Positions 47,708 through 64,000 are shown, counted from the first letter of the stretch. The stretch: DNA of 64,000 nt from an uncultured Acidobacteriota bacterium (GCA_963805975.1 CAWDVR010000001.1:1184001-1248000), one strand, 5' to 3'. Program-made: numbers and translations. The notes: generated from the letters alone by a model not told the origin.

Positions 47708-49855
47708 ATGGCCGGACAGCGATCGATCGTTCGTTTGCGGCGGGCCCTGCTCGGCCTCCTCGTGCTGCTCGTCGCCGGTCTCGCCGTCCTCTACTGGTTC
47801 GGGCGCTCCGGTCTCGAGCGCCCGCCCAAGGTGGCGATCGAGGAGGGCGAGCTGCCGGCCGACGATCTGACCTTCGCGGGCAAGGACTTCGACTTCAGCT
47901 ACGAGGAGGGCGGGCGGACGATCTTTGCTCTCCATGGGGACGACTTCCGGCGTGACCGCGAGGGCAACGTGGTGGTCGATCAGCTCGCGGTCCGGATCAA
48001 CACCGCCCAGGGAGATACCTTCGAGGTCGAGGGCAAGCAGGGCACCTACAACCAGGAGACGCAGGAAGCGGTCCTCGAATCCGGCGTCAAGGTCAAGAGC
48101 CCGTCCGGCATCGAGCTCGAGACCAGCAAGCTGCAGCTGACCCAGAAAGGCAGAGCCATCCTCGGCCAGGAGCCGATGACCTTCCGCTATCAGGAGAAGG
48201 CTCAGGGGCGCGCGGACCGGATGCGCGCCGACCTCGACGAGCGCCTGTTCATCCTCGCCGGCAACGTGCGGGTGGACAATGGCGCGGACGCCCCGGGGCC
48301 GTTCCGGATCCGTGCCGGCCGGCTCTATCTCGACCGCAACCAGCACCATGCGCGCGCCGATGGGGACGTGTTCGTCTCCTTCCTCTCGCACCGCCTGCGC
48401 GCGCCGCGCATCAACCTGTGGCTCACCGAGGACGACCAGACCGTGCAGTTCGTGCGCGCCGTACGGGGCGTGCGCGGACGGCTGGGGCTCCAGCCCTCGG
48501 CGAGCGCCGTCGGCCCGGTGCGCTTCGCAGGCCGGACTCTCTCGGCCATCTTCGCGCCGGACACCGGCGACCTCGCCCGCTTCGAGCTGGGCAGCAACGC
48601 GGCCGAGCCGGCGACGGTGATCTCGACCTCTCCCGGCGAGCCGGCGCGCAGGCTCGGGGCAAGCTTCATCAACGGCAACCTCGAAGGCGGCAACCTCACC
48701 CGGGCCGAGGCCCTGGGCGGGGTCAAGCTGGCGGAGCTCGCCACCTTGCCGCCCGAAGAAGCCTGGGACGCGGCGGCCGAGGCGGCGCCCGCCACCGAGC
48801 CGGCCGAGGAGAGCGGTGAAGACTCGGAGGAGAGCGAAGCGGAAGCAGCGAAGGCGGCGGCGCTGGGGAACGACTCGGTGGCGCTCGACGAGCTCGACCG
48901 CGGGGCACTGCGGCTCGCCACGGGACGCCGGGCCGAGGCGAGCTTCGGCCCCGACGGCCAGCTCGTCGAGGTCACGCTCTACGAGCGGGTGGACTTTCGC
49001 GACCCGCAGTTCCACGCCGTGGGCGACCAGGTGCGCTTCGACTACAGCAACGGCATCGGGGAGTTCCTCGGCAAGCCGGTGCGCGCCACCAGCGCGCGCG
49101 GCACTCTCACCGCGCCGCGCCTTCTCTATACTCAGCGCACCGGCCTATTGGTGGCGCAGGCCGGGGTCCGTGCCGAGCTCCAAGAAGAGACCGGGGCCGG
49201 CGTGCTCGGCGACAGCCCTCTGGCCGAGGGAGAAGGCCCTATCTTCGTGGAATCCCAAGAGGCTTTTTTTCGCGGCTCCTCCCGCTCGTTCCTCTTTCGC
49301 GGCAAGGTGAAGGCCTGGCGCGGCGAGAGCCTGGTCCTGGCCGACGAGCTCAAAGGAGACGAGGACACGGGCCAACTGACCGCTACCGGCAACGTGCGCA
49401 CGGTGACCAAGCAGCAGAGCGCACCGGCGCGTGGCGCCGCACCCCAACCGCCGGTGGAGGTCACCGCGGCGTCGATGCTCTACGGCAAGGCGGCACGCAC
49501 GATCGTCTACCGCACCGGAGTGAAGGCGGTGCAGGGCCAGCGGGCGCTCTCCTGCGACGAGCTGACCATCGAGCTCGACGACCGGCAGAAGCTCGAGGCC
49601 CTGGTGCTCACCGGCAACGCCAAGATCGAAGATCGCGAGACCGGCCGCACGGTGGTCGGCGACCGCGCCCGCTACGAGCCCGGGGCCAAGACCGTCACCG
49701 TGGAAGGCGAGCGGGCCACGATGCGCGACCGCGACGGCGCCGAGGTCACGGGCCAGCGGATCGTCTACGAGTTCGAGACCGGCAAGGCCCAGGTCACGGG
49801 CGCGCCGCCGGAACTTCCACCCGTCGGCTCCGCTGGAACCGGGAGCGGGCGATGA
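47708..49855 (+). CDS. Fused LptC/LptA-type multi-beta-jellyroll LPS transport protein
   Basis: N-terminal TM, repeated A..GNV / Y....G OstA-like strands, directly upstream of lptB. Confidence 0.8.
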
Positions 49856-50583
49856 GCGAGTCGCGGACACTCTCGACGCGCGGCCTGCGCAAGGTCTACC
49901 GCGGGCGTGCCGTGGTCAACGACGTGTCGATCGAGGTCCAGCCCGGCGAGGTCGTGGGCCTGCTGGGTCCCAACGGCGCGGGCAAGACCACGACCTTCTA
50001 CATGGTGGTCGGTCTGACGCCGCCCGACTCCGGCAGCGTGTTCCTGGGCGAGGAGGACATCACCGAGCTCCCCATGTACCTGCGCGCCCAGCGGGGCATC
50101 AGCTACCTGCCGCAGGAACCTTCCATCTTCCGGCGCATGACGGTCGACAACAACCTGCGGGCCATCTTCGAGACCCTGGACCTGCCGCACGCCGAGCAGG
50201 AGCGGCGCATCGACCAGCTGATCGAGGAGTTCGGCCTGGGCAAAGTCCGGCGCAGTCAGGGCTATGCGCTGTCGGGCGGCGAGCGCCGGCGGGTCGAGAT
50301 TGCGCGGGCGCTGGTCATCAACCCCTGGTACATCCTGCTCGACGAGCCCTTCGCCGGCATCGATCCCATCGCGGTGCTCGATATCCAAGGTATCATTGGC
50401 CACCTGAGGAAGATGGGGATCGGGATCCTCATCACCGACCATAACGTGCGGGAAACACTGAAAATAACCGATCGCGCCTATATCATCAACAATGGCGCCA
50501 TCTTGCGTGCCGGCCCCCCTGCCGAGCTCTCCGCAGACCCCGAGGTGAGGAAGATCTACCTCGGCGAGGAGTTCCGTCTCTAA
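49852..50583 (+). CDS. lptB: LPS export ABC ATPase
   Basis: [50 protein letters not shown]. Confidence 0.97.
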
Positions 50584-52157
50584 TGGCGTTGGAACAGAAA
50601 CTCTCCCTCAAGCTGTCGCAGCGGCTGGTGATGACGCCGTCGTTGCAGCAGGCCATCAAGCTGCTGCAGATGACCCGGCTGGAGCTCGAGGGCATCCTCA
50701 CTCAGGAGCTGGTCGAGAACCCCGTCCTGGAGGACAACGCCGAGGGGCCGGAGGAGACCGAGGCGGAGCGCCAGGAGGCCGAGGCCGAGCCCGAGCCCGA
50801 GGCCCCGGTGGTCGAGGACCCGCTCGACAAGATCGACTTCGAGGCCTACTTCAGCGACTACATGGAAGGGCCGACCTACGCCTCGACCTACGAGGAGCGG
50901 GAAGAGGCGCCGATCGAGAACAGCCTGATCCGCGAGCCGGACCTCTACGACCACCTGCTCTGGCAGCTTCACATGAGCGGTGTCGAGCCGGACCAGCGCC
51001 TGATCGCCGAGATGATCATCGGCAACCTCAACCCGGACGGCTTCCTGGTGGCGACGGTGGAGGAGATCTGCGGCATGCTGGTGGAGCCGGGGCAGAACGG
51101 CGCGCACGCCCCGGATCACCAAGCTCAGGTCGACCTCGCCCTCGGCCAGGAAAACGGCACGGAGCCGACAGCAGCGTCCGGCGAGGAAGCTGCTCCCCTG
51201 GAGCACGCGCCGGTCATCGACCAGGCGGTCTCGGCCCGGGTGGAGGCGGCGCTCGCGCTGGTGCAGAGCCTCGACCCGCCGGGCGTGGCCCGGCGCGACG
51301 TGCGCGAGTGCCTCCTTGCCCAGCTCGAGCACCGGGGCGAGGACCGGGACAGCCTGGCCTGGAAGATGATCGCCGACCACTGGGAGCTCTTCCTGCGGCG
51401 GCAGTTCGCGCAGGTCGCCAAGGCCCTGAACATCGAGCTCAAAGACCTCGAATCCGTGGTCGAGCTCATCCGTACCCTCGAAACCCGGCCCGGCCGCAAG
51501 TTCACCGCGGACCGCACGCACTACATCGAACCCGACGTCGTGGTGCGCAAGGTGAGCGACGAGTACGTCATCCAGTTGAACGACGACGGACTGCCGCGGC
51601 TGCGGGTCAGCCGCGCCTACCGGCGGATGCTGCAGCAGATGCGGATCGACGGCGGCGAGAACGAGGCCCAGCAGTTCATCAAGGACAAGATGCGCTCCGC
51701 GGTGTGGCTGATCAAGAGCCTCGACCAGCGGCAGCGCACCATCTACAAAGTGGCGGACTCGATCGTCCGCCAGCAGCGCGACTTCCTCGATCACGGCATC
51801 GAGCACCTGCGGCCCATGGTGCTGCGCGACGTGGCCGAGGACATCGGCATGCACGAGTCCACGGTCAGCCGCGTGGTGTCCAACAAGTACATCCATACGC
51901 CGCGCGGCCTGTTCCCCATGAAGTTCTTCTTCCACAGCGGCATCGACCGCGAGTACGGAGAGAACATCTCCTCGCTCACCGTCAAGCGCAAGCTCGAGCG
52001 GATCGTCGAGAGCGAGGATCCCAAGCAGCCGCTGTCGGACAGCGAGCTGATGCGCATCCTCAAACGCGAGGGCATCCAGATTGCACGCCGCACAGTGGCC
52101 AAGTACCGAGAGGAGCTCAACATCCCGTCTTCCACCGACCGCAAGCAGATTTTTTAG
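50583..52157 (+). CDS. rpoN: RNA polymerase sigma-54
   Basis: MTPSLQQAIKLLQ, HESTVSR, RpoN box ARRTVAKYRE. Confidence 0.98.
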   Translation: MALEQKLSLKLSQRLVMTPSLQQAIKLLQMTRLELEGILTQELVENPVLEDNAEGPEETEAERQEAEAEPEPEAPVVEDPLDKIDFEAYFSDYMEGPTYASTYEEREEAPIENSLIREPDLYDHLLWQLHMSGVEPDQRLIAEMIIGNLNPDGFLVATVEEICGMLVEPGQNGAHAPDHQAQVDLALGQENGTEPTAASGEEAAPLEHAPVIDQAVSARVEAALALVQSLDPPGVARRDVRECLLAQLEHRGEDRDSLAWKMIADHWELFLRRQFAQVAKALNIELKDLESVVELIRTLETRPGRKFTADRTHYIEPDVVVRKVSDEYVIQLNDDGLPRLRVSRAYRRMLQQMRIDGGENEAQQFIKDKMRSAVWLIKSLDQRQRTIYKVADSIVRQQRDFLDHGIEHLRPMVLRDVAEDIGMHESTVSRVVSNKYIHTPRGLFPMKFFFHSGIDREYGENISSLTVKRKLERIVESEDPKQPLSDSELMRILKREGIQIARRTVAKYREELNIPSSTDRKQIF

Positions 52158-52213
52158 CGAAAGCTTCTGACCACTTCCGGCGCCACGAGCAGCCGGAGAA
52201 AGGAAGCAGCGCG

Positions 52214-52564
52214 ATGAACGTCGAGTACTTCGGACATCACTACCACGTCGACGACGACCTGCGCGGTTTCATCGAAGGTAAGCTCAAGAAGCTGAGCAAG
52301 TTCGTAGAGGACCCCATCGACGTCCGTGTCACCCTGGCCGCCGAGAAGTACCGCTACCTGGCCGAGCTCCAAGTCTCGCACCGCCACGGCGCTCTGCAAG
52401 CGACCGAAGAGCACCAGGAAGTGAGGGACGCGATCAACCTGGCGGTCGACAAGGTGGAGAAGCAGGCCCGACGCGCCAAGGCGCGATTCGTGGACCGCAA
52501 GCGCCGCGCCGATCCCCTGCATCAGCAGGAGCAGAACGTCGACCTCGTCAACCCGGAGCCGTAG
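52214..52564 (+). CDS. hpf: Ribosome hibernation factor (short HPF/RaiA)
   Basis: Position after rpoN; KLKKL, AINLAVDKVEKQARR. Confidence 0.88.
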   Translation: MNVEYFGHHYHVDDDLRGFIEGKLKKLSKFVEDPIDVRVTLAAEKYRYLAELQVSHRHGALQATEEHQEVRDAINLAVDKVEKQARRAKARFVDRKRRADPLHQQEQNVDLVNPEP

Positions 52565-52604
52565 TGCGCCACGTCTCTCAGCCCAGAGGTCGGAGCCAGC
52601 CCGG

Positions 52605-53600
52605 GTGAGCGCGCCCGAGGTACTGGTCTCCGACCTTCTGGGCGACGAGCTCACGGACCTGAAGCTCAAGGTGCTGGCGGGCGAGTCCCACCTCGACAAT
52701 CTGATCACCAACCCGCGGGTGCAGAAGCCCGGCCTCGCCTTCGCCGGCTACTTCGACTACATCAAGCCGGGCCGGGTGCAGATCGTGGGCGAGAGCGAGA
52801 CCGCCTACCTCGCCACCGTCTCCGCCGCCGAGCGCCGCCGGCGCTTCGAGATCATCGCCAAGATGCCGGTGCCGGTGTTCGTGATCACCAAGGGGATCCG
52901 GCCCCTGCCCGGTTTTCTCGACGCCTGCAAGCGGCGCGAGGTGCCGGTGCTGTCTTCGCTCGCCCTTTCCTCCGAGGTCATCCGCCGCATCAGCTACTTC
53001 CTGGAGGACCACCTCGTCCCCACCACCCACATCCACGGCGTGCTGGTGGACGTCTACGGCCTCGGCGTGCTGCTCATCGGCTCGAGCGGCGTGGGCAAGA
53101 GCGAGCTCGCCCTGGACCTCATCTCGCGCGGCCACAGCCTGGTGGCGGACGACCGGGTGACGGTGCGGCGCTACCCCCCGGACGACCTCGTCGGCTACGC
53201 CGAGGGGCCGCTGCGCCACCACATGGAGCTGCGTGGCCTGGGGATCATCAACGTGCAGGACCTGTTCGGCCTGGCGGCGGTGCGCGAGCGGCGGCCGATC
53301 GACCTGGTGGTCGAGCTCGAGCCCTGGGTGGACGGCAAGGCCTACGAACGGCTCGGTCTCGACGAGACCGTCTTCCACATCCTCGATTCCCCCTGCCCCT
53401 ACATCAAGATGCCGGTGGCCGTGGGCCGCAACGTCGCCATGCTGGTCGAGATCGCGGCGCGCAACCACGTGCTCAAGCTCCAGGGGCATCACTCGGCGCG
53501 CGAGTTCGCGCGCAAGCTCGAGCAGGAGCTGGAGCGCAACCGCCATCACCGGCAGCGCAAGGGGCGGACCGCGGGGGCTGAACCGCCGCCGCAATCATGA
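52605..53600 (+). CDS. hprK: HPr kinase/phosphorylase
   Basis: PGLAFAG, HGVLVDVYG, GSSGVGKSE, LVADD, ELRGLGII. Confidence 0.96.
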   Translation: MSAPEVLVSDLLGDELTDLKLKVLAGESHLDNLITNPRVQKPGLAFAGYFDYIKPGRVQIVGESETAYLATVSAAERRRRFEIIAKMPVPVFVITKGIRPLPGFLDACKRREVPVLSSLALSSEVIRRISYFLEDHLVPTTHIHGVLVDVYGLGVLLIGSSGVGKSELALDLISRGHSLVADDRVTVRRYPPDDLVGYAEGPLRHHMELRGLGIINVQDLFGLAAVRERRPIDLVVELEPWVDGKAYERLGLDETVFHILDSPCPYIKMPVAVGRNVAMLVEIAARNHVLKLQGHHSAREFARKLEQELERNRHHRQRKGRTAGAEPPPQS

Positions 53601-54478
53601 GCCACGAAACGCGCTGCCGCCTGGTGCTGGTCACCGGTCTGTCGGGATCGGGCAAGAGCACGGTTGCCAACTGCTTCGAGGACCTCGGCTACTACGTGGT
53701 CGACAACCTGCCCCTGCCCCTGCTCGAGCCGCTGCTCGCCAACCCGGCCGGGCTGGTGGAGGGCCACGACCGCATCGCGGTGGTCACGGACGTGCGGGCG
53801 CCGGGCTTCGCCGAACGCGCCCCCGGCCTGGTGGACTCGATCGATCGCAAGGCGGTGGAGGTCGCACTGCTCTTTCTCGAGGCCTCCGACGAGGCCCTGG
53901 TGCGCCGCTTCTCGGAGACCCGACGGCCTCATCCCCTGGCCGCGACCGGCACGCTGATCGAAGGCATCCGCCGCGAGCGCGACCTGCTCGCCGACCTCCG
54001 CGGCCGCGCCGACATGGTGGTCGACACCAGCGAGTTCTCGATCCACGAGACCCGCAGCCTGATCTACAGTGAGTTCGCCACCGAGCCCGGCGAAGAGCCG
54101 TCGATGACCGTGTCGGTGGTGAGCTTCGGTTTCAAGCGCGGCATCCCCTACGGCACGGACCTGCTCTTCGACGTGCGCTTCCTTCCCAACCCCCACTTCG
54201 TTCCCGGCCTGCGGGAGCTCACCGGGCAGGACGCGGCGGTGCTGGCCTATCTCGAGGCGGAACCAGACTTCGCCGAGCTGGTCGCCCGCTTGAAAGACCT
54301 CCTCCTCTACCTCCTGCCGCGCTACCGGCGGGAGAACCGGAGCTACCTCTCGGTGGCCATCGGCTGCACCGGCGGCAGGCACCGCTCGGTGGCGGTGGCC
54401 GAGCGCCTGGCGGGGGAGCTCGGCAGCGCCGGCTGGCCGGTGCGCCTGATCCACCGCGACTGCTCCCGCACTCCGTAA
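53597..54478 (+). CDS. rapZ: RNase adapter RapZ
   Basis: GLSGSGKS, VDNLP, SETRRPHP, SFGFK, DVRFLPNP, IGCTGGRHRSV. Confidence 0.96.
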   Translation: MSHETRCRLVLVTGLSGSGKSTVANCFEDLGYYVVDNLPLPLLEPLLANPAGLVEGHDRIAVVTDVRAPGFAERAPGLVDSIDRKAVEVALLFLEASDEALVRRFSETRRPHPLAATGTLIEGIRRERDLLADLRGRADMVVDTSEFSIHETRSLIYSEFATEPGEEPSMTVSVVSFGFKRGIPYGTDLLFDVRFLPNPHFVPGLRELTGQDAAVLAYLEAEPDFAELVARLKDLLLYLLPRYRRENRSYLSVAIGCTGGRHRSVAVAERLAGELGSAGWPVRLIHRDCSRTP

Positions 54479-54490
54479 TAAAATCGATCG

Positions 54491-54949
54491 ATGTTCTCGA
54501 CGCTCATCGTTTCCCAGGGCGGCCTGGCCCGCGAGCTGGTGGCGACCGCCCGCCAGATCATGGCCGAGCCCGTGCCGCTCGAAGCGCTCACCCTGGAGTG
54601 GGAGGACGACCTCGAGGCGGCGCGCTCCAAGGTCCGACAGGCGGTGGACCGGCTACGCGGCGAGGACGGCGTGCTGGTGCTGGTCGACATGGCGGGCTCG
54701 ACGCCGTGCAACGCCGCGGTGAACGCGGCCGAAGCGGGCGGTGTCGAGGTGATCGCCGGCGTCAACCTGCCGATGGTGCTGCGCCTGGCCTGCGGTGCGG
54801 CCCAGGCCTCGGGGCTGGCGGAGTGCGCGGCCTGGCTGAAGGCCAAGGGGCAGAAGAGCATCAGCCGGCCCGAGCGCTGCGGCTGGCCCGAATCGCCCTG
54901 CGACGAGACCCGCGGCGACGAGAACAGTGGGGGAGGGGCCGGGTCTTGA
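54491..54949 (+). CDS. PTS EIIA mannose-family protein, phospho-His replaced by Gln
   Basis: LVDMAGSTPCN, GVNLPMVL; IVSQG in place of xxTHG. Confidence 0.85.
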   Translation: MFSTLIVSQGGLARELVATARQIMAEPVPLEALTLEWEDDLEAARSKVRQAVDRLRGEDGVLVLVDMAGSTPCNAAVNAAEAGGVEVIAGVNLPMVLRLACGAAQASGLAECAAWLKAKGQKSISRPERCGWPESPCDETRGDENSGGGAGS

Positions 54950-55212
54950 TCGAGCGCGAGGTCGAGATCGTCAACCGGCTGGGCCTCCACGCCCGGGCCG
55001 CGGCCAAGCTGGTGAAGACCGCCGGCGGCTTCCGCGCCCAGATCCACGTGGAGAGGGACGGCGAGGTGGTGGACGCCAAGAGCATCCTCGGCCTGATGAT
55101 GATGGCCGCCGCCCAGGGCACATGGGTGAAGCTGCGTTGCGAAGGCGAGGACGAGGCACTGGCGATGACCGCCGTCAGCCAACTGATCGCTGACCGCTTT
55201 CAGGAAGAGTGA
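54946..55212 (+). CDS. ptsH: Phosphocarrier HPr
   Basis: NRLGLHARAA (His15), DAKSILG (Ser46); TTG start. Confidence 0.95.
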   Translation: MIEREVEIVNRLGLHARAAAKLVKTAGGFRAQIHVERDGEVVDAKSILGLMMMAAAQGTWVKLRCEGEDEALAMTAVSQLIADRFQEE

Positions 55213-56975
55213 TGCCGAGCGACGGCCCGGCCATGCAGGAGATCGAGGGATTGGGAGTCGCGCCGGGGATCGCCATCGGCCGCGCGGTGTGCCTGAAGAC
55301 TCACGCGGTCGAGGTCTATCGCCTACCGATCGAGGCCGCGGGCCTGGACGCCGAGGTAGCGCGCTTCCACGAGGCCAACCGCCGCGCGCAGCAGGAGATC
55401 CGCCGCATCCGCGACAACGTCCGCGAGCAGTTGGGGGACGAGCTGGGAGAGATCTTCGAGGCGCATTCCCTGTTCCTGGACGACCCCGCCTTTCTCGGGC
55501 GCATCGAGCGCAAGATCCGCGAGGAGCTGGTCAATGCCGAGTGGGCGGTCTATCGCACCGCCGAGGAAATGGCGGAGCGGTTCGCGGCGGTCGAGGACGA
55601 GTACATCCGGGAGCGCCACGAGGATCTCTGGGACGTGGCGCACCAGCTCCTGCGCAGCCTCCAGGGCGTTCCCCACCACGAGATCTCCGAGCTCGAGGGC
55701 GAGGTGGTCGTGGTGGCCGACGAGCTCACCCCTTCGCATGCCCTGCGCCTGGGCCGGGAGAACGTGCTCGGCTTCGCCATCGAGTCCGGCGGCAGGACCT
55801 CGCACACCACCATCATCGCGCGCTCGCTCAACCGGCCGCTGGTGAGCGGTCTGGACGGTCTCTCGGCGCTGGTGACCGACAACGACCCGGTGATCGTGGA
55901 CGGCGAGACCGGCAAGGTGATCCTCCATCCCACCGACGAGACGCTGGCCCGCTACCGCACCCGGCAGCGCGAGCTGGCCGCGCGCGACCAGGCCGCCCTC
56001 GCCACCCGCGCCTTGCCTGCGACCTCGCGCGACGGCACGACGATCCACCTGATGGCCAACATCGACCTGCCGGAGGAGATCGGCACCGCGCTCGAGCTGG
56101 GGGCGACGGGCGTCGGCCTCTACCGCAGCGAGTTCCTCTACATCGAGAAGAGCCCGCAGCTCCCCAGCGAAGAGGAGCATTTGCAGATCTACGGCGCCCT
56201 GGCGAGGGCTGCCGCGCCCCACCCGGCGATCATCCGCACCTACGATCTGGGAGGCCGCAAGCTGGCGCGAGAGATGCTGCACACGCGGGAGGAGAACCCG
56301 GTGCTCGGCATGCGCGGCATCCGAGTCACCCTGGCCCGCCCGGAGATGTTTCGCACCCAGATCCGCGCTCTGCTGCGTGCCGCGCTCGAGGGCGACCTGT
56401 GGGTAATGATCCCGCTAGTATCAACTTTAGAGGAAGTAAGAAAATTCAAGTCTTTCGTTCGAGTCGTGTCTGCAGAGCTCGAAGCTGAAGGCGTCCCCTT
56501 CCGCAAGGATCTCAAGCTGGGGATCATGATCGAAGTGCCCTCGGCGGCGATGATCGCCGACCGCCTGGCGCCGGAGGTCGACTTCTTCTCGATCGGCACC
56601 AACGACCTGATCCAGTACGCCATGGCCGTGGACCGCAACAACGAGCACGTGGCCGCGCTCTACCAGCCCATGCATCCAGGGATCCTGCGCATGCTACGCT
56701 TCGTCGCGGAGAGCGCGCGGCACGCCGGGATCGAGGTCTCGGTCTGTGGGGAGATGGCTTCGGACCCTCGCCTGGCTGCCTTGCTGCTCGGGCTGGGGCT
56801 GAGGCGCCTCTCCATGGCTCCGCGTTCGATCCCGGCAATCAAGACGTTTCTGCGCGGACAGCGGATCCGAGCCTTGGAGGCGCTGGCCAAGGAGTGCCTG
56901 GAGCTGGGCACCGCCGCCGAGGTCGAGGCGCGAGTGGCAGCCACGTTGCCCAGCCTCTGGTCTGGGCAACTCTGA
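55209..56975 (+). CDS. ptsI: PTS enzyme I
   Basis: GGRTSH, GLYRSEF, ENPVLGMRG, SIGTNDL, CGEMA. Confidence 0.96.
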   Translation: MMPSDGPAMQEIEGLGVAPGIAIGRAVCLKTHAVEVYRLPIEAAGLDAEVARFHEANRRAQQEIRRIRDNVREQLGDELGEIFEAHSLFLDDPAFLGRIERKIREELVNAEWAVYRTAEEMAERFAAVEDEYIRERHEDLWDVAHQLLRSLQGVPHHEISELEGEVVVVADELTPSHALRLGRENVLGFAIESGGRTSHTTIIARSLNRPLVSGLDGLSALVTDNDPVIVDGETGKVILHPTDETLARYRTRQRELAARDQAALATRALPATSRDGTTIHLMANIDLPEEIGTALELGATGVGLYRSEFLYIEKSPQLPSEEEHLQIYGALARAAAPHPAIIRTYDLGGRKLAREMLHTREENPVLGMRGIRVTLARPEMFRTQIRALLRAALEGDLWVMIPLVSTLEEVRKFKSFVRVVSAELEAEGVPFRKDLKLGIMIEVPSAAMIADRLAPEVDFFSIGTNDLIQYAMAVDRNNEHVAALYQPMHPGILRMLRFVAESARHAGIEVSVCGEMASDPRLAALLLGLGLRRLSMAPRSIPAIKTFLRGQRIRALEALAKECLELGTAAEVEARVAATLPSLWSGQL

Positions 56976-57001: not shown

Positions 57002-57844
57002 ATGCGCCGCATCCAACCCAGAGTCATCGCCTGCTGCTGGAGCGCGGTCTTGTTGGCGCTCGCGCTCACCGCCTGCGCCTCGCGAACCAAGCCATCCTCG
57101 TCCCTCTCGCCGCCCACCTCCACCCCGGTGGCCGAGGCTCCGAGGGAACCTGTCACGCCTGCGGCGGAGCCGGCTCCCCAGTCGAAGCCAGCCCCGTCGC
57201 GGCCGGCAGAGCCGACCACCGTGGTGCTGGACAGCGGCGAAGAGACGGCCGAGCAACCCCGGAGCCTGCTCGAGGCATCGCGCCTGGCCAAAGAGAGACA
57301 GCGGACTGCTGGCCAGCCGGTCGCCGTGATCACCAACGAGAACCTCGGCGAGTACGCGAGCCGGGGAAGGCTGACTGTGATCCACCCGGCCCCCAAGCCG
57401 GCTTCCGAGGAACTTGCCGAGGAGGAGGGGACAGCCACCCCCTCGGGGGAGGCCGGTCGGGGGAAGAATGAGACGTACTGGCGAACGACCGCCCTGTCCC
57501 TGCGGGAGAAGTGGCGTGCAGCGCTCGACGCCGTGGTCGAGCTCGAGGCTCGAGCCGAGGCGCTCCGGCACCAGTTCTACAGCCAGGAGGACGTCTATCT
57601 CCGTGACACGCGCGTCAAGCCGGCCTGGGACCGTGTGCTCGACCGACTGGAAGAGGCCCGGCGCGAGTCGGAGTCGGGGCGCACCGAGCTGACAGACTTT
57701 CTCGACGAAGGCCGCCGCGCCGGCGCCCTCCCGGGCTGGCTGCGCGAGGGCATCGAGCTGGAGCCGGAAGAGCAGCGGACCTTCGAAGACGACCTGCCGG
57801 AGGCGGAAGCCGTGGAACCGGTTACGATCGACGACACACCATGA
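57002..57844 (+). CDS. Lipoprotein with Pro-rich linker and coiled coil
   Basis: Lipobox LTAC, ITNENL, E.YWR, GRRAGALPGWLR. Confidence 0.8.
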   Translation: MRRIQPRVIACCWSAVLLALALTACASRTKPSSSLSPPTSTPVAEAPREPVTPAAEPAPQSKPAPSRPAEPTTVVLDSGEETAEQPRSLLEASRLAKERQRTAGQPVAVITNENLGEYASRGRLTVIHPAPKPASEELAEEEGTATPSGEAGRGKNETYWRTTALSLREKWRAALDAVVELEARAEALRHQFYSQEDVYLRDTRVKPAWDRVLDRLEEARRESESGRTELTDFLDEGRRAGALPGWLREGIELEPEEQRTFEDDLPEAEAVEPVTIDDTP

Positions 57845-59220
57845 CCCTCGACCCTCGAACCACTCCCCGGCGCTTCTTCATCGAGACCTGGGGTTGCCAG
57901 ATGAACGAGCTGGACTCGCAGCGCATGGCGGGGCAGCTCATCCAGCAGGGGATCCTGCCCACCCGAGACCCGGGCCAAGCCGATGTCATTCTGCTCAACT
58001 CCTGCAGCGTAAGGGAGAAAGCGGTGCAGAAGGTCTACTCGCGGCTCGGAGAGTACCGGCGCCTGAAGCTGGAGAACGACGAGCTGCTCATCGGCCTCTG
58101 CGGCTGCGTGGCCCAGCAGGAAGGGGAGAGCGCCCTCGCTCGCGTGCCGGACCTCGATTTCGTGATCGGTCCGGCGCGGGTGGGGGAGCTGAAGCAGGTT
58201 CTCGCCGAGCGCCGGGCGGGGCGACGGGTCGTTGCCACGGGTTTTCCAGAGGAGCGCAGTTTCGAGATCGATGCCATCTCCCGGGACGGCGACTACAAGG
58301 GGATGGTCACCATCATCGAGGGCTGCAACAAGAAATGCACCTTCTGCATCGTCCCTTTCACCCGCGGCCCGGAGCGCAGCCGCCGGATCGACGAGGTCCT
58401 TCACGATGTCCGCCACCTTCTCGACTACGGCTTTGTCGAGATCGAGCTCCTGGGCCAGACAGTCAACCACTGGCGCGATCCGGAACAGGATCTTGACTTC
58501 GCGGACCTGCTCGAAGCGGTGGCCGCGCTCGAGGGATTGAAGCGCCTGCGTTTCGTGACCTCCTACCCGCGAGACTTCTCGCCGCGGATGGTCGAGCAGA
58601 TCGGCCGCCGCCCGAACATCTGTCCCTACCTGCATCTGCCCGTTCAGTCCGGCTCCGACCGCGTGCTGCGGCGCATGGGTCGCGGCTACACGATTGGTGA
58701 GTACCTCGATCTGGCCCGACAGCTCCGTGCGGCGCGCCCCGGTCTCGCCCTGTCCACCGACCTGATCGTCGGCTTTCCCGGCGAAACGGCGGAGGACTTC
58801 GAGCAGACCCTCGCCTTGGTCGAACGGGTTCGCTTCTCGAGCTTGTTCGCCTTCTGTTACTCGCCCCGGCCTGGTACGGCCGCTCCAAAGCTCGACGGTG
58901 CCGTAGAGCCGGAAATCGCGCAGCGCCGGCTGCAGGAGCTCCTGGCCCTACAGATCCCGATCCAGCGCGAGCTCAACTCGAGCCTGGTGGGGGAGGAGAT
59001 GGAGGTGCTGGTGACCGGCGGAGGGAAGGAGCCGGGAGCCCAACAGGGTCGCACGGCGTGCCACCGGATCGTTCATTTCCAACCGCCCCGGCCGCTGCCG
59101 CTCGGCAGCCTGACGCGAGTGCGGATCGAGACCGCTCTGCCACACAGCCTGCGTGGAGCTTCTCTCGAGTCGATGCCGTTGTCCCACCACGGCGCTCCTG
59201 GTCTGCACGTTCTGGCGTGA
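57841..59220 (+). CDS. miaB: tRNA methylthiotransferase MiaB
   Basis: GCQMN..DS, NSCSVREKA, CNKKCTFC, HLPVQSG, TRAM domain. Confidence 0.96.
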   Translation: MTLDPRTTPRRFFIETWGCQMNELDSQRMAGQLIQQGILPTRDPGQADVILLNSCSVREKAVQKVYSRLGEYRRLKLENDELLIGLCGCVAQQEGESALARVPDLDFVIGPARVGELKQVLAERRAGRRVVATGFPEERSFEIDAISRDGDYKGMVTIIEGCNKKCTFCIVPFTRGPERSRRIDEVLHDVRHLLDYGFVEIELLGQTVNHWRDPEQDLDFADLLEAVAALEGLKRLRFVTSYPRDFSPRMVEQIGRRPNICPYLHLPVQSGSDRVLRRMGRGYTIGEYLDLARQLRAARPGLALSTDLIVGFPGETAEDFEQTLALVERVRFSSLFAFCYSPRPGTAAPKLDGAVEPEIAQRRLQELLALQIPIQRELNSSLVGEEMEVLVTGGGKEPGAQQGRTACHRIVHFQPPRPLPLGSLTRVRIETALPHSLRGASLESMPLSHHGAPGLHVLA

Positions 59221-59278: not shown

Positions 59279-59773
59279 ATGGCCGACACCGAGCTCAAGA
59301 TGGAGATCCGCGGGTTGATGCTGGACCCCGCCTCCAACCTGCCGATCGTCATCCTGCGCGAGGAAAGCGGCCAACGCATGCTGCCGATCTGGATCGGCGT
59401 TTTCGAGGCCAACGCGATCGCGCTGCGGATCGATGGCTTCGAGCCCGCGCGGCCGATGACCCATGACCTCCTCCTGAACACCTTCCGCGAGCTGGGTGCC
59501 CAAATCGAGAAGATCGTGATCTCCGATCTCAAGGACACCACCTTCTTTGCCGTCATCCACATGAGCCAGGGAGAGCGGCAGAGCAGGATCGACTCACGTC
59601 CCAGCGACGCCATCGCCCTGGCTTTGCGGGCAGACGCCCCGATTTTCGTCCTGAGCTCCGTGCTCGACAAGGCCCAAGCCGCGGACCGCGCCTCGGAAGT
59701 CAGCGACGAGGAGCAGCTCAAGAAGTGGCTGGAGGAGATTAGTCCCGAAGATCTCGGAAAGTACACGATGTGA
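59279..59773 (+). CDS. Bifunctional nuclease (DUF151) family protein
   Basis: LPIWIGVFEA, RPMTHDL, DSRPSDAIALA. Confidence 0.92.
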   Translation: MADTELKMEIRGLMLDPASNLPIVILREESGQRMLPIWIGVFEANAIALRIDGFEPARPMTHDLLLNTFRELGAQIEKIVISDLKDTTFFAVIHMSQGERQSRIDSRPSDAIALALRADAPIFVLSSVLDKAQAADRASEVSDEEQLKKWLEEISPEDLGKYTM

Positions 59774-59832: not shown

Positions 59833-59850
59833 ATGTCGGCGCGCCGACAT
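59833..59850. promoter_or_regulatory. Perfect 18-bp palindrome, candidate parS-like site or operator
   Basis: ATGTCGGCGCGCCGACAT, 14 nt upstream of the parA -35 box. Confidence 0.55.
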
Positions 59851-59864
59851 CGAGGCTCGTGTCC

Positions 59865-59894
59865 TTGACCGTCTGTGAAGCGTTCCCATACACT
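59865..59894 (+). promoter_or_regulatory. Sigma-70 promoter of parAB
   Basis: TTGACC-18 nt-TACACT, ATG 10 nt downstream. Confidence 0.65.
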
Positions 59895-59904
59895 CTCCGC
59901 GGTC

Positions 59905-60666
59905 ATGATCATTGCCATCACGAATCAGAAGGGCGGCGTCGGCAAGACCACGACCGCGATCAACCTCTCTGCAGCACTCGCCGGAAAAGGCCTCAGGACT
60001 CTCCTGCTGGACCTGGATCCACAGGCCAATAGCTCCATGTCCTATATCGACGTACGCAATCTTACCGGCCCCACGTTGTACGACGCGTTGACCGAACCAA
60101 GCGTCCACTTGGCCGACACCGTACGCCCTATCGAGCGGTTTCCTAACCTGTTCATCTCGCCCTCGACCATCTCTCTGGCCAAGATCGAGGCAAAGCTCCT
60201 CGGTGAGCTCGACAGCCACTACCGGCTCAAGGATGAGCTGGACAAGGTCCATGAACAGTTCGACTACGTGATCATCGACACTCCGCCAACGCTCGGCATC
60301 ATTACCTTCAACGCCCTGGTCGCCGCCACCCACGTTCTGGTTCCGGTGCAGTCCAGCTACTTCGCGCTGGAGGGAACGGACGACCTGCTCGACACGATCG
60401 ACAAGATCAAGCTGCGAGCCAACCCGCAGCTCCAGATCCTGGGCGCGCTCATCACTCTGTATGACAAGAGAACGGTGCTGTCCAAAGACATTCAGCGGCA
60501 GATTCACGAGGTGTTCGGCGACAAAGTCTTCAAGACCGTGATCTCGAAGAGCGTCCGTCTCGAGGAGAGCCCTGCTTACCACGAGCCGATCTTCACCTTC
60601 GCGCCCAACTCGAGCGGCGCCTACGAGTACTACAAGCTCACTGAGGAGGTGTTGAGCCGTGTCTAG
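59905..60666 (+). CDS. parA: ParA/Soj family ATPase
   Basis: NQKGGVGKTTT, DLDPQAN, IIDTPP. Confidence 0.93.
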   Translation: MIIAITNQKGGVGKTTTAINLSAALAGKGLRTLLLDLDPQANSSMSYIDVRNLTGPTLYDALTEPSVHLADTVRPIERFPNLFISPSTISLAKIEAKLLGELDSHYRLKDELDKVHEQFDYVIIDTPPTLGIITFNALVAATHVLVPVQSSYFALEGTDDLLDTIDKIKLRANPQLQILGALITLYDKRTVLSKDIQRQIHEVFGDKVFKTVISKSVRLEESPAYHEPIFTFAPNSSGAYEYYKLTEEVLSRV

Positions 60667-61534
60667 CGCCACCGTCGTCACCAAACGCCGCGGGCTGCCG
60701 GATCGGGTGCGGATGCGTCACGAGCCGCATTTCGTCGAAGAGCTCACCAGCCGCCACGAGACGCCGGTGGGTCGGTTCATGCCGATGTCCGAGATCGAGC
60801 TCGATCCCCGGCAGCCACGCTCGGCGATGGGAGATCTCTCGGAGCTCGCGGCCTCGATCCGCACGAAGGGAATTCTCGAACCCATTCTGGTTCGCCCTCG
60901 ACCCGCCAGCGAGGAAGAGCCGGGAGCGCCCTACCGGATCATCTCCGGCGAGCGCCGCTTTCGAGCAGCCCAGGAGGTCGGCCTCTACGAGGTTCCGGTG
61001 ATCGAGATGGAGGTCAGCGAGGAAGAGGCCCTCGAGATTGCTCTCATCGAGAATCTCCAGCGTAAAGATCTGACGCCTTTCGAGGAAGCCGAAGGCTATC
61101 GGGCGCTTTCCGAGATCCATGGTTACACCCAGGAAGAAGTGGCAAGCTCGGTGGGGAAGTCGCGCACTGTGGTCACCGAGGCCCTGTCGCTGCTCCAGAT
61201 CCCACCTCGGGTGCGAAATGCAGTCCAGGCTTTGGGCGTTGGGTCGAAGTCGGTTCTGTTAGAGGTGCTGAAGGCCGGTGGCGAGGACGAGATGATCCAG
61301 CTCCTCGAACAGGTGGCACGTCAGGGACTCAACCGCGATGACCTCCGTCGAAAGCTACGCAACAAGGAGACGGCCAAGGGCGGGCGGCGCAAACCCTACG
61401 TGTTCAAGTTCAGGGCTCCAGACAAGACGTTCAGCCTGGCTTTGACCTTCCGCCAGAGCGCCGTGGACAAGGTCGATCTCATCGCTGCGCTCGAGCAGAT
61501 CCTGCGCGAGCTCCAAGCAGACAAAGACGGTTGA
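60659..61534 (+). CDS. parB: ParB/Spo0J family CTPase
   Basis: QPR, GILEPILVR, GERRFRA, ENLQRKDL, HTH TQEEVASSVGKSR. Confidence 0.92.
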   Translation: MSSATVVTKRRGLPDRVRMRHEPHFVEELTSRHETPVGRFMPMSEIELDPRQPRSAMGDLSELAASIRTKGILEPILVRPRPASEEEPGAPYRIISGERRFRAAQEVGLYEVPVIEMEVSEEEALEIALIENLQRKDLTPFEEAEGYRALSEIHGYTQEEVASSVGKSRTVVTEALSLLQIPPRVRNAVQALGVGSKSVLLEVLKAGGEDEMIQLLEQVARQGLNRDDLRRKLRNKETAKGGRRKPYVFKFRAPDKTFSLALTFRQSAVDKVDLIAALEQILRELQADKDG

Positions 61535-61627
61535 CTCCGGACCCCGAGAGGGGCTCCAGCAAGGGCGGCTAGTGCGGTCTTTTTGCCGGGGATCGCGGCT
61601 CGATCGCGCCGCCGCATCATCGATATG

Positions 61628-61655
61628 ATGTCCGATAAGATATATTATGTCAACT
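61628..61655 (+). other. dif site (XerC/XerD chromosome dimer resolution)
   Basis: ATGTCCGATAA-GATATA-TTATGTCAACT versus E. coli GGTGCGCATAA-TGTATA-TTATGTTAAAT: 11-6-11 layout, ATAA/TTAT inner arms, XerD arm 9/11 identical; intergenic AT-rich island. Confidence 0.88.
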
Positions 61656-61775: not shown

Positions 61776-64000
61776 ATGACGCGGATCAGCCGGTACCTCC
61801 TGCGGGAGATCTGGGGCCCACTGGCCCTGGGGTTCTCCGTCTACACGTTCATCCTCCTAGTGCGGGTGCTCTTCCTCTCGGCGGAGATGATCATCCGCCG
61901 TGGCGTGCCGGCACCGGTAGTCGGCGAGCTGCTGCTCTGGAACCTGCCGAACATCGTGGTCCTGACGCTGCCGATGTCTCTCCTCTTCGGCATCCTGACG
62001 GCCGTGGGCCGGCTGGCGTCGGACAGTGAGCTGATCGCCATCCGGGCCAGCGGCTTGAGCCTGCTCAAGCTCTACCGGCCCATCCTCGTGCTGTCCATTC
62101 TCTTCACCCTGTTGAACGTGGGACTGATGTCCTACGTGCTGCCTTGGGGTAACGCCCGCCTGCAGCAGCTCCGCCTGGAGATGATGTCCCAGGGCGTGTC
62201 CCGCACGGTCGAGCCTCGAATCTTCTACGAGGACTGGCAGGACAAGGTGCTCTATGTGTTCGACATCGATCCGGCTACCGAACGCTGGCGCGGGGTCTTC
62301 CTCGCCCAGTCCTTACCCACTTCCAGCGAGCAGGAGGTGATCGTTGCCGACTGGGGCGAGGTCCGGGTCGACGCCGCCGGCGAGCGAGTCATGCTGATCC
62401 TGGGCAACGCCGAGGACCACAAGCTCGACCCCCTGCGCCCCGAGCGCTATCAACGCCAGCGATTCGCCGATGCCAGGCAGGAGCTGGACGACGCCTTCAC
62501 CAGCCGGGAGCGGGCCAAGATCTCGGCCTCCAAGGGAGTGCGCGAGCTCACCCTGCCGGAGCTGGCGGCGAAGGCGGAGGATCCGTCCACCTCCGCCGAG
62601 GTCCGCAACCTGGCCCGCGTCGAGATGCACAAGAAATTCTCCATCCCCTTCGCCGCCGTGGTCTTCGGCCTCTTTGCCTTGCCCCTGGGGTTCAACAATC
62701 GCCGGGGTGGCAAAGCCTCCGGCTTCGCGCTCTCGATCGGCGTGATCCTGGTCTACTACGTGTTGCTGAACAACGGCGAAGAGGCTGCGCGCTTCGGAAG
62801 GTTCTCTCCCTGGGTCGCCATGTGGCTCCCCAACCTGATGCTGGGAGGCATCGGGTTCTACCTGCTGATCCGCCGTGACCAGGACAGGAGCCTGCTCTTC
62901 TCACCGGTGGACCGCTGGCTGCGGCGAGACCTGTGGGGAGCGCTGACGGGCGCTCTCGGCAGGATTCGGCGGGCGCGCCGGGAGCGCCAGCGTGCCGCGG
63001 CCAGCCGCGCTGGGGGCGGCTCGGGCGGCGGCCTAGTGAAGGTTCTGATCTCCCGGCCACGCCTGACCTTTCCCAGCGTGATGGACCGCTACACCCTACG
63101 CGCCTTCGGTTCCGTGTTGCTGACCGTGCTGGTCTCGATCGTGGCCATTTACATCATCGCGGACCTGACGCAGTTGATCGACGAGATCCTGAAGAACCAC
63201 GTTTCGCAGGACGTCGTCGGCCAGTACTACCTCTACACGAGCTTCCAGGTCTTCTACGACCTGGCGCCGATCGTGGTCCTGGTGACCACGCTCATCACCT
63301 TCAGTCTGCTGTCGCGGACCAACGAGGTGACCGCGGCCAAGGCCCTGGGCATGAGCCTCTACCGCCTCTCACTGCCGGTGGTGGTCGCCGCGGTCCTGAT
63401 CTCGGCCTTCTCCACCTATCTCGAATCGGTCGTGCTGCCGGTCACCAACCAGCGGGCCCAGAAGCTCGAGGACAAGATCCGCGCCAATCCCGTGCCGCAG
63501 ACCTACAGCCGGCCGGACCGCTGGCTGTTCGGCAAGGGTGGCTTCATCTACAACTTCCTCACCTACGACCAGGCGACGGAGACCTTGCAGCGGCTGCAAG
63601 TCTTCGAGCTCGACGAGAACCACCGTTTGAAGAGCCGCCTGACCGCCGCAACGGCCCGCTTCGACCGTTCCCTGCACGGTGGGAAAGGCGGCTGGCTGTT
63701 CACCGACGGCTGGATCCGGCGGTTCGACTCCAGCGATACCGGGTCGAGTCTCCGGGACCCCGAGTACACGCGCTTTGCCGGGCCCGTGGAGGTCGATTGC
63801 AAGGAGACTCCGGAGTTCTTCGTCTCCGAGTTGCGGCGCCCCGAGCAGATGGGCTACGGCGAGCTCAAGCGCTACATCGCCGAGCTCGAGGCCAGCGGCC
63901 AGCCGGTACCGCAGCTCCAGGTGGACTTGCAGAAGAAGATCGCCTTCCCGGTCACCTCGCTGGTCATGGCGCTGGTGGCGCTCCCCTTCGCGTTTCGCCT
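61776..64000 (+). CDS. lptF: Fused LptF-LptG LPS export permease, 3'-truncated by window edge (absent from ORF track)
   Basis: MTRISRYLLREI..GRLASDSELIAIRASG; same frame continues into MDRYTLR..LSRTNEVTAAKALGMS; TATAAT at 61762. Confidence 0.9.
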   Translation, partial: MTRISRYLLREIWGPLALGFSVYTFILLVRVLFLSAEMIIRRGVPAPVVGELLLWNLPNIVVLTLPMSLLFGILTAVGRLASDSELIAIRASGLSLLKLYRPILVLSILFTLLNVGLMSYVLPWGNARLQQLRLEMMSQGVSRTVEPRIFYEDWQDKVLYVFDIDPATERWRGVFLAQSLPTSSEQEVIVADWGEVRVDAAGERVMLILGNAEDHKLDPLRPERYQRQRFADARQELDDAFTSRERAKISASKGVRELTLPELAAKAEDPSTSAEVRNLARVEMHKKFSIPFAAVVFGLFALPLGFNNRRGGKASGFALSIGVILVYYVLLNNGEEAARFGRFSPWVAMWLPNLMLGGIGFYLLIRRDQDRSLLFSPVDRWLRRDLWGALTGALGRIRRARRERQRAAASRAGGGSGGGLVKVLISRPRLTFPSVMDRYTLRAFGSVLLTVLVSIVAIYIIADLTQLIDEILKNHVSQDVVGQYYLYTSFQVFYDLAPIVVLVTTLITFSLLSRTNEVTAAKALGMSLYRLSLPVVVAAVLISAFSTYLESVVLPVTNQRAQKLEDKIRANPVPQTYSRPDRWLFGKGGFIYNFLTYDQATETLQRLQVFELDENHRLKSRLTAATARFDRSLHGGKGGWLFTDGWIRRFDSSDTGSSLRDPEYTRFAGPVEVDCKETPEFFVSELRRPEQMGYGELKRYIAELEASGQPVPQLQVDLQKKIAFPVTSLVMALVALPFAFR

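Follow-up and report, generated by a model that had tools for sequence, protein, structure and literature searches.

A plasmid-type parABS module beside dif as a candidate partition system for the chromosome terminus in Acidobacteriota

ParABS is generally seen as a machine of replication origins and plasmids, and chromosome termini are thought to be handled by FtsK and XerCD together with MatP- or ZapT-like organisers. What role, then, could a parA-parB operon have when it ends beside dif, the site that marks the terminus? The question is raised by a 64,000-nucleotide stretch of DNA (the window), which corresponds to C1:1,184,001-1,248,000 of a six-contig, 5.36-Mb Acidobacteriota genome; the closest relatives of its ParB carry the labels Thermoanaerobaculia or Acidobacteriota. 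The initial annotation had described the locus as a second ParAB pair acting on the terminus, in core-gene surroundings and with a 28-bp dif 93 bp beyond the parB stop, and the coordinates of operon and dif were borne out (Table 1).

Table 1. Features of the dif-linked parAB locus, in positions of the window
Feature	Position	Strand	Description
miaB	57841-59220	+	Ancestral left flank of the dif locus
BFN-domain gene	59279-59773	+	Ancestral left flank of the dif locus, between miaB and the palindrome
Candidate parS-type palindrome of ParB2	59833-59850	.	Perfect 18-bp palindrome; 16-bp core TGTCGGC-GC-GCCGACA at 59834-59849
Predicted sigma-70-like promoter for parA2-parB2	59865-59894	+	TTGACC-18-TACACT, from a consensus scan only
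parA2	59905-60666	+	253 aa from ATG; Pfam AAA_31, E 7e-55; Soj-like Walker-A ATPase
parB2	60659-61534	+	291 aa; ParB_N and HTH_ParB; ParB CTPase-fold protein
dif	61628-61655	+	28 bp: arm ATGTCCGATAA (taken to be XerC-type), spacer GATATA, arm TTATGTCAACT (taken to be XerD-type)
Fused lptF-lptG	61776-63998	+	Runs off the window; ancestral right flank of dif

The reading frames of the two genes, here called parA2 and parB2, overlap by 8 nt. ParA2 has neither an N-terminal HTH nor the membrane helix of MinD, and ParB2 scores 146 bits against TIGR00180 (cut-off 58). The promoter match starts 15 bp 3' of the palindrome core, with comparable -35/-10 stretches in relatives, and the palindrome lies 1.8 kb from dif. 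Core genes flank the locus on both sides (rpoN, hprK, rapZ, ptsI, miaB, the BFN-domain gene, and fused lptFG), and no rep, integrase, or phage genes were found beside parAB2, in agreement with the initial annotation. Further upstream, a cluster of lptB, rpoN, hprK, rapZ, EIIA-like, HPr-like, and ptsI genes (49852-56975) keeps its place in Thermoanaerobaculia. An excess of A/T-ending codons had also been reported and connected to the AT shift of termini. A lower GC3 does characterize some five genes, with values of 0.82 for parA2, 0.76 for parB2, 0.83 for miaB, and 0.86 for BFN, but ptsI has 0.89 and lptFG 0.90, against a genome median of 0.91 (2670 ORFs). The drop is thus local: the 20-kb bins from 1.18 to 1.24 Mb have a GC3 of 0.88-0.91, which rules out a terminus-wide shift.

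Several lines of evidence place the locus at the terminus. The dif is the sole ATAA-N6-TTATG in the 5.36-Mb genome (one match in the window versus 0.01 expected) and scores 46.7 bits with a matrix derived from 41 related sites, while the runner-up genome-wide reaches 9.5 bits, so that pattern search and matrix rule out a better dif elsewhere. The cumulative GC skew of contig C1 has its maximum at 1.194 Mb, 52 kb from dif, on a plateau that stays flat between 1.13 and 1.24 Mb. The classical GGGNAGGG was rejected as a terminus marker for its weak polarity (164:114 to the left, 18:53 to the right, with a cumulative peak at 0.99 Mb), and the data-derived octamer TGGGGGAG was therefore used instead. 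This octamer is the most polarised one (91:7 to the left and 1:24 to the right of dif); it was chosen with dif as the split point, and the interval of the flip was then taken from its own positions, between about C1:1,242,990 and 1,248,600, with dif at 1,245,628 falling inside. Skew and octamer polarity thus put the locus at the terminus, as had been proposed, and together with a dnaA-linked parAB elsewhere they rule out a location at oriC. A polarity switch at dif is described, in passages of PMC13342612, as a hallmark of FtsK-orienting motifs. TGGGGGAG, far more polarised than GGGNAGGG, is a candidate for such a motif in this lineage.

With its two arms in 28 bp, its single copy, its position at the polarity switch, and the presence of Xer and FtsK genes in the genome, the site has the features of a XerCD dif, at which recombination is predicted. 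One Xer recombinase gene is intact at C2:193 kb, and the second, at C5:373,838-374,756, is split over three overlapping frames, probably as a result of assembly indels; as assembled, the genome has a single intact Xer. ScpB is encoded as well. Brief ter-like skew reversals, free of dif, occur near the contig ends at about 0.85-0.95 Mb of C3 and 0.65-0.72 Mb of C5, where inversions, islands, or misjoins are the options, and C5 has no clear skew minimum at dnaA.

ParB-family matches in this genome number exactly two. The second belongs to a canonical parAB pair at C5:73-74.5 kb, 20 kb from dnaA, which rules out parAB2 as the only parAB of the genome. All three parS-like matches, found with what we take to be the canonical parS consensus and with 3 mismatches each, lie on C5 near this pair and dnaA (75,174, 75,231, and 94,040). 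The arrangement is general: in 24 of 26 low-contig relatives, the contig with dnaA also carries the origin parB at a distance of less than 30 kb, and in the other two the genes are neighbours across the numbering start, so that an origin parB near dnaA was also present in all 26 genomes checked. Two more Soj/ParA-like ATPases are encoded at C1:706,742-707,242 and C2:697,904-698,395, with no ParB match nearby.

By hand count, about 143 of 250 other genomes of the phylum carry a ParB2 orthologue at E < 1e-50. Two were set aside; of the 141 left, 82 had no more than 100 contigs, and these minus two formed an orthologue set of 80 genomes. The module is spread over classes, with the labels Thermoanaerobaculia, Acidoferrales, and Aminicenantes; about 105 of the 250 genomes lack it (also counted by hand), so that parAB2 is dispensable in whole lineages. 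Its position on the chromosome could be read in the 13 of 26 low-contig genomes with dnaA and parB2 on one contig. In 12 of them, parB2 lies opposite dnaA, at 0.42-0.50 of the chromosome, contrary to what defines a canonical origin ParABS. These 12 include three genomes of families f14/f32 without an adjacent dif; the exception is a genome (G105) with parB2 63 kb from dnaA.

The distance from dif to parB2 is at most 1.1 kb in 55 of the 80 orthologue genomes, at most 10 kb in 59, and at most 60 kb in 62; in the other 18, two of them with the locus near contig ends, dif is unlinked or was not found. The 21 genomes with no dif within 10 kb include all 8 of families f14/f32, where the only dif candidates carry one mismatch and stay at background level. 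At 23 of 24 close loci dif is downstream of parB2, with 10 sites oriented one way and 13 the opposite way. Among the loci of an independent metagenome set, a dif-like site above 12 bits adjoins 8 of 12 ParB2-type loci versus 1 of 67 canonical ParB loci, the latter at 12.2 bits and with many of the loci short.

Part of this linkage belongs to the surroundings. The block miaB-BFN-(site-parA2-parB2)-dif-lptFG is ancestral: of 80 loci whose flanks are long enough, BFN adjoins the module in 67 and lptFG in 27. However, BFN or lptFG is also found within 1.5 kb of dif in 14 of 21 good dif loci of parAB2-free genomes (out of 30 loci retrieved, from 39 matching genomes among 50 without parAB2), and lptFG lies beside dif in 5 loci without the module. 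Because dif keeps these neighbours where parAB2 is absent, the closeness of parAB2 to dif is partly inherited synteny, and the tight linkage is weaker evidence than it appears. Four loci have module and dif inverted together between the flanks. Elsewhere in the phylum, dif-like matches number ten in one genome (G206), where they are spread over several contigs, in part at intervals of about 1-3 kb, and may be pdif-like modules. Family f40 has no dif pattern match in its 10 genomes, although most other families do, and parAB2 is absent there too; its dif is either divergent or absent.

Both proteins retain the catalytic motifs of a partition pair. ParA2 has the KGGVGKTT motif, D38, D125, R189, and R218 expected of a type I ParABS ATPase; K9, G10, K14, T15, T16, and R189 are found in 88 of 88 orthologues and R218 in 86 of 88, and identity among orthologues is 55-95%. 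R189 and R218 presumably bind DNA, as their counterparts in Soj are taken to do. The protein scores 186 bits against AAA_31 versus 50 against MipZ, and 52 against minD_bact, whose cut-off is 213; its C-terminus reads EEVLSRV, so that it has the marks of neither MinD nor MipZ. ParB2 keeps the CTPase motifs QPR, GERR, and ENxxR, with GERR 97-100, E131, N132, R135, and R169 in 86 of 86 orthologues. Its AF2 model (pLDDT 91) predicts an N-domain, a helical DNA-binding domain, and a C-domain of two strands plus a helix, which together with the CTPase motifs and the HTH corresponds to a ParB with C-terminal dimerisation domain.

The recognition helix, on the contrary, has changed. R169 (R173 of Caulobacter ParB) is kept, the GHARA sequence is replaced by SKSxL, and the position of Caulobacter N178 is a glutamate (E174) in 86 of 86 ParB2 proteins versus an asparagine in 30 of 30 origin ParBs. 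In Caulobacter ParB, parS is contacted by N178 and by G201, which is one of the residues that determine specificity; N178, like R204, is conserved across ParB and Noc proteins (PMC7383237). As none of these three parS-reading residues is kept, a new DNA site would be expected for ParB2.

The pairing of the two proteins is suggested by the N-terminus of ParB2, a low-pLDDT coil (residues 1-24) followed by a short helix (25-31) in the model. It carries a peptide of its own, KRGLP-x4-MRHD, and such N-terminal peptides stimulate ParA in known systems, as stated in part of PMC7333895. Most loci have ParA2 next to parB2, with 88 intact copies recovered from 93 loci; the peptide is missing from families f5, f19, and f34, and the same three families have lost ParA2. 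The sole ParA found in them is of the origin type by identity (5 of 5 genomes, three of them fragmented). A complex prediction of the ParA2 dimer with ATP and ParB2 residues 4-38 gave 0.35 versus 0.00 for the best control, with contact agreement of at least 76% and partner pLDDT of at least 58. This mark is reached by 116 of 157 solved pairs and 2 of 215 mismatched ones, with 18 solved pairs and both mismatches among the passes at 0.60 or below. The prediction weakly supports the pairing and may reflect likeness to known ParA-ParB pairs.

A candidate for the new DNA site is the palindrome upstream of parA2, which the initial annotation had not noted. The 18-bp sequence occurs once in the genome versus 0.075 times expected (0.01 in the window), and in 21 of 22 close relatives the palindrome precedes parA2. 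TGTCGGC-NN-GCCGACA is present in 57 of 80 ParB2 genomes and in 1 of 80 genomes without ParB2, hand-picked from about 106 towards fewer contigs, and that single control genome has a partial ParB2 orthologue 540 bp away; the reversed pattern occurs in 3 of 80 genomes in each set. Relatives are not independent, so these counts carry no p-value. The palindrome lies within 2 kb of parB2 in 49 of the 57 genomes. Of 94 loci, 36 have it upstream, 19 in-gene, 9 downstream, and 1 both in-gene and downstream, while 29 lack it; upstream and in-gene copies never occur together. Where the locus codes for CRxAD, 20 of 23 loci use the exact codons that spell the site, compared with TGT in only 26 of 113 other Cys codons. 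Two near-complete chromosomes have clusters at the terminus: G106 has five palindromes over the 130 kb that surround dif, and G152 has four over 53 kb. In three genomes of family f8, palindrome and operon share a contig but are about 44-51 kb apart. In its shifting placement, clustering, and codon use, the palindrome behaves like parS sites rather than like a fixed operator. Judged by co-occurrence and position only, it is a putative operon-linked cis site of a ParABS system, and such a cognate-site candidate at the terminus strengthens the reading that the module may act there.

The strict palindrome is missing in 23 of the 80 orthologue genomes, including 9 of 10 in family f39, although the recognition helix of these 23 looks unaltered. 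Two f39 loci (L070 and L086) have ACAGAC-N4-GTCTGT twice each between parB2 and dif, 826-887 bp from the parB2 start; with just these two related loci plus one looser case, it was not adopted as a replacement site.

The origin of the module was sought in quick, unrooted ParA and ParB trees with SH-aLRT support only. In the ParB tree with plasmid proteins (88 rows, a subset of the sequences gathered), ParB2 forms one clade (98) on the plasmid/chromid side, distinct from canonical chromosomal ParBs: a branch 0.65 long (100) divides ParB2 and the plasmid/chromid ParBs from 39 canonical ParBs. ParB2 groups with plasmid ParBs from Nitrosococcus, Azospirillum, Indioceanicola, Skermanella, and Planctomyces and with 20 unplaced environmental proteins, and is therefore likely part of a domesticated plasmid module. 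Inside the clade, the subgroups f14+f32, f39+f56, and f43+f70 repeat the family groupings of origin ParBs. The ParA2 clade (96) falls outside the canonical chromosomal ParA clade (98); this tree leaves the relationship to plasmid ParAs undecided.

No close plasmid relative of ParB2 was found in 2317 plasmid records (best E 6e-22), and no close viral one in the 37 of 64 parts of the viral contigs scanned (45% identity at best); a metagenome scan for sister proteins recovered 1. The absence of close plasmid or viral copies implies that the transfer was old. A phage or IMEX origin was rejected: the 37 parts scanned gave no close viral ParB2, and of 125 palindrome-bearing viral loci, 1 has a ParB nearby, which is unrelated, and 1 a dif. 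In a contig of a viral collection (L435:301-474; 616 bp covered), 130 bp separate the palindrome from a dif-like site, with no parAB between them. The Nitrosococcus plasmids NC_013958.1 and NC_007483.1 have two GAGTCGGACGTCCGACTC palindromes each, one of them inside parB at codons matching the acidobacterial in-gene site, and palindromes of a different kind occur in or close to parAB at 4 of 5 Azospirillaceae loci. Several plasmid/chromid parAB loci (L209:6445 and 6869, L290, L292, L293, and L295) each have a different xxxxGACGTCxxxx-type palindrome in or beside parB, likely an undescribed family of plasmid parS variants.

Compared with canonical chromosomal ParABS (Soj/Spo0J-parS; PDB 1vz0, 7bnk, 6t1f), parAB2 has in common the parA-parB operon, an HTH-free Soj-like ParA, the GERRxRA and ENLQR motifs of ParB, a 16-bp palindrome, and the R173 equivalent. 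It differs in its location at ter instead of ori, in the palindrome, in its separate clade, and in the ParB changes N178 to E and G201/H202/R204 region to S-K-S-x-L, and the two systems coexist. With the Nitrosococcus plasmid and Azospirillaceae ParAB it shares the side of the ParB tree, the SKS/SRS helix motif, and predicted 16-18-bp palindromes in or next to parB, with a GTCGG-N4-CCGAC core common to Nitrosococcus. Identity is 35-44%, and those pairs are on plasmids, some by rep genes, whereas the acidobacterial pair is chromosomal, vertically inherited, and at dif. MatP-matS and ZapT offer an analogy only: a sequence-specific protein at ter, which ParB2 would also be. MatP and ZapT have folds unrelated to ParB2 and are not known to have an ATPase partner, and ParA2/ParB2 are plasmid-type. 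Noc, the ParB paralogue of Firmicutes with its NBS sites, is a further comparison. The NBS sites avoid ter, while the candidate sites of ParB2 are at ter. ParB2 is likewise a ParB paralogue, but it scores 146.9 bits against TIGR04285, below the Noc cut-off of 315, lacks the Q173/K179/K184/R201 set, has an invariant R169 where Noc has Q, and has a cognate ParA. Noc itself, as described in part of PMC7333895, combines a changed DNA specificity with a task other than segregating origins. ParB2 would resemble it in both respects.

Other readings of the locus have been weighed against partition of the terminus. MipZ and PomZ act on the divisome, and ParB2 could likewise mark ter for a ParA2 that acts on the divisome instead of moving DNA. 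The strong conservation of ParA2 would fit this, as would the fact that many bacteria have ter at mid-cell in the late cell cycle (PMC4177673, in part), but the far higher score of ParA2 against AAA_31 than against MipZ, the missing MinD membrane helix, and the plasmid partition pairs as nearest kin make it an unlikely reading. The lack of MinE, found in none of the 80 phylum genomes searched, would also favour a division role, but it extends to lineages without the module and is therefore uninformative between the two kinds of lineage. Still less probable is a ParA-independent role at dif, with ParA2 as an accessory and a ParB2 clamp that gates XerCD/FtsK, blocks or unloads SMC at ter, or exerts Noc-like occlusion. 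In its favour, ParB2, the palindrome, and an adjacent dif persist in family f34 although ParA2 is missing, dif never precedes parB2 and is near enough for spreading to reach it, ScpB is present in 5 of 5 genomes, and SMC unloading at dif is discussed in part of PMC13342612. Against it stand the presence of ParA2 in most loci with its catalytic residues all kept, the loss of ParA2 in f5 and f19, which coincides with loss of the nearby site, and the basic KRGLP type of the ParB2 peptide, unlike that of Noc.

The palindrome could also be mainly an autoregulatory operator, with ter position due to inherited synteny or a gene-dosage timer and with ParA2 positioning some other cargo. Its placement in this genome is operator-like, a single site just 5' of the promoter-like sequence, 15 bp from the -35 match; most genomes have one site, and the miaB-BFN-dif-lptFG block is conserved with or without the module. 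A site that is in-gene or downstream in 29 of 65 site-bearing loci, lies tens of kb from the operon in f8, and forms clusters in G106 and G152 is hard to reconcile with this role, and plasmid kin share the in-gene or downstream placement; we regard the operator reading as improbable as well. A recent mobile element integrated at dif, either an IMEX or a plasmid, is largely refuted and very improbable. As in an IMEX, foreign-type genes lie directly beside dif; GC3 is lower in parA2 and parB2, the proteins are plasmid-type, and empty sites exist. However, no replication, transfer, or other mobility gene adjoins the module, attL/attR-like flanking by a second dif-like half site occurs in 1 of 89 loci, core genes are on both sides, and presence across classes with a ParB2 tree that echoes the origin-ParB groupings points to phylum-wide age.

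We therefore propose, with moderate confidence and on the basis of comparative sequence data, that palindrome, parA2, and parB2 probably form a plasmid-type parABS, likely derived from a plasmid or chromid and fixed early in Acidobacteriota, whose cargo is the terminus. ParB2 dimers would bind the palindrome through the altered recognition helix; with CTP they would close and then spread across a few kb, a range that would take in dif. The N-terminal peptide of ParB2 would stimulate ParA2, whose ATP dimers would coat the nucleoid. Plasmid ParABS spaces its cargo equally. A single ParB2 complex would keep ter close to mid-nucleoid, the place of FtsK/XerCD action, until it is replicated; two complexes would then part and clear the septum. 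Historically, the cassette may have landed beside dif between BFN and lptFG, by XerCD-mediated integration or replicon fusion, and then been passed on vertically and lost in several lineages. More tentatively, and perhaps doubtfully, these chromosomes may have two orthogonal centromeres: a canonical centromere serving ori, and another, captured from a plasmid, that actively centres ter, splits sister termini, and, in a phylum whose searched genomes gave no MinE, sets the division site. No report of a terminus parAB2, of such a role for a partition system of this type, or of the palindrome was found among the papers searched; the supplements of parS/dif surveys could list such sites.

If true, an abundant soil phylum would have solved late chromosome segregation in a new way, by means of a conserved parABS at the terminus, and would offer a dated case of a plasmid module drawn into the core cell cycle. 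The new ParB-site pair, with the N-to-E switch of its recognition helix, would be useful for specificity studies and orthogonal DNA labelling. Since protein, site, and natural loss variants are all available, the module is directly testable.
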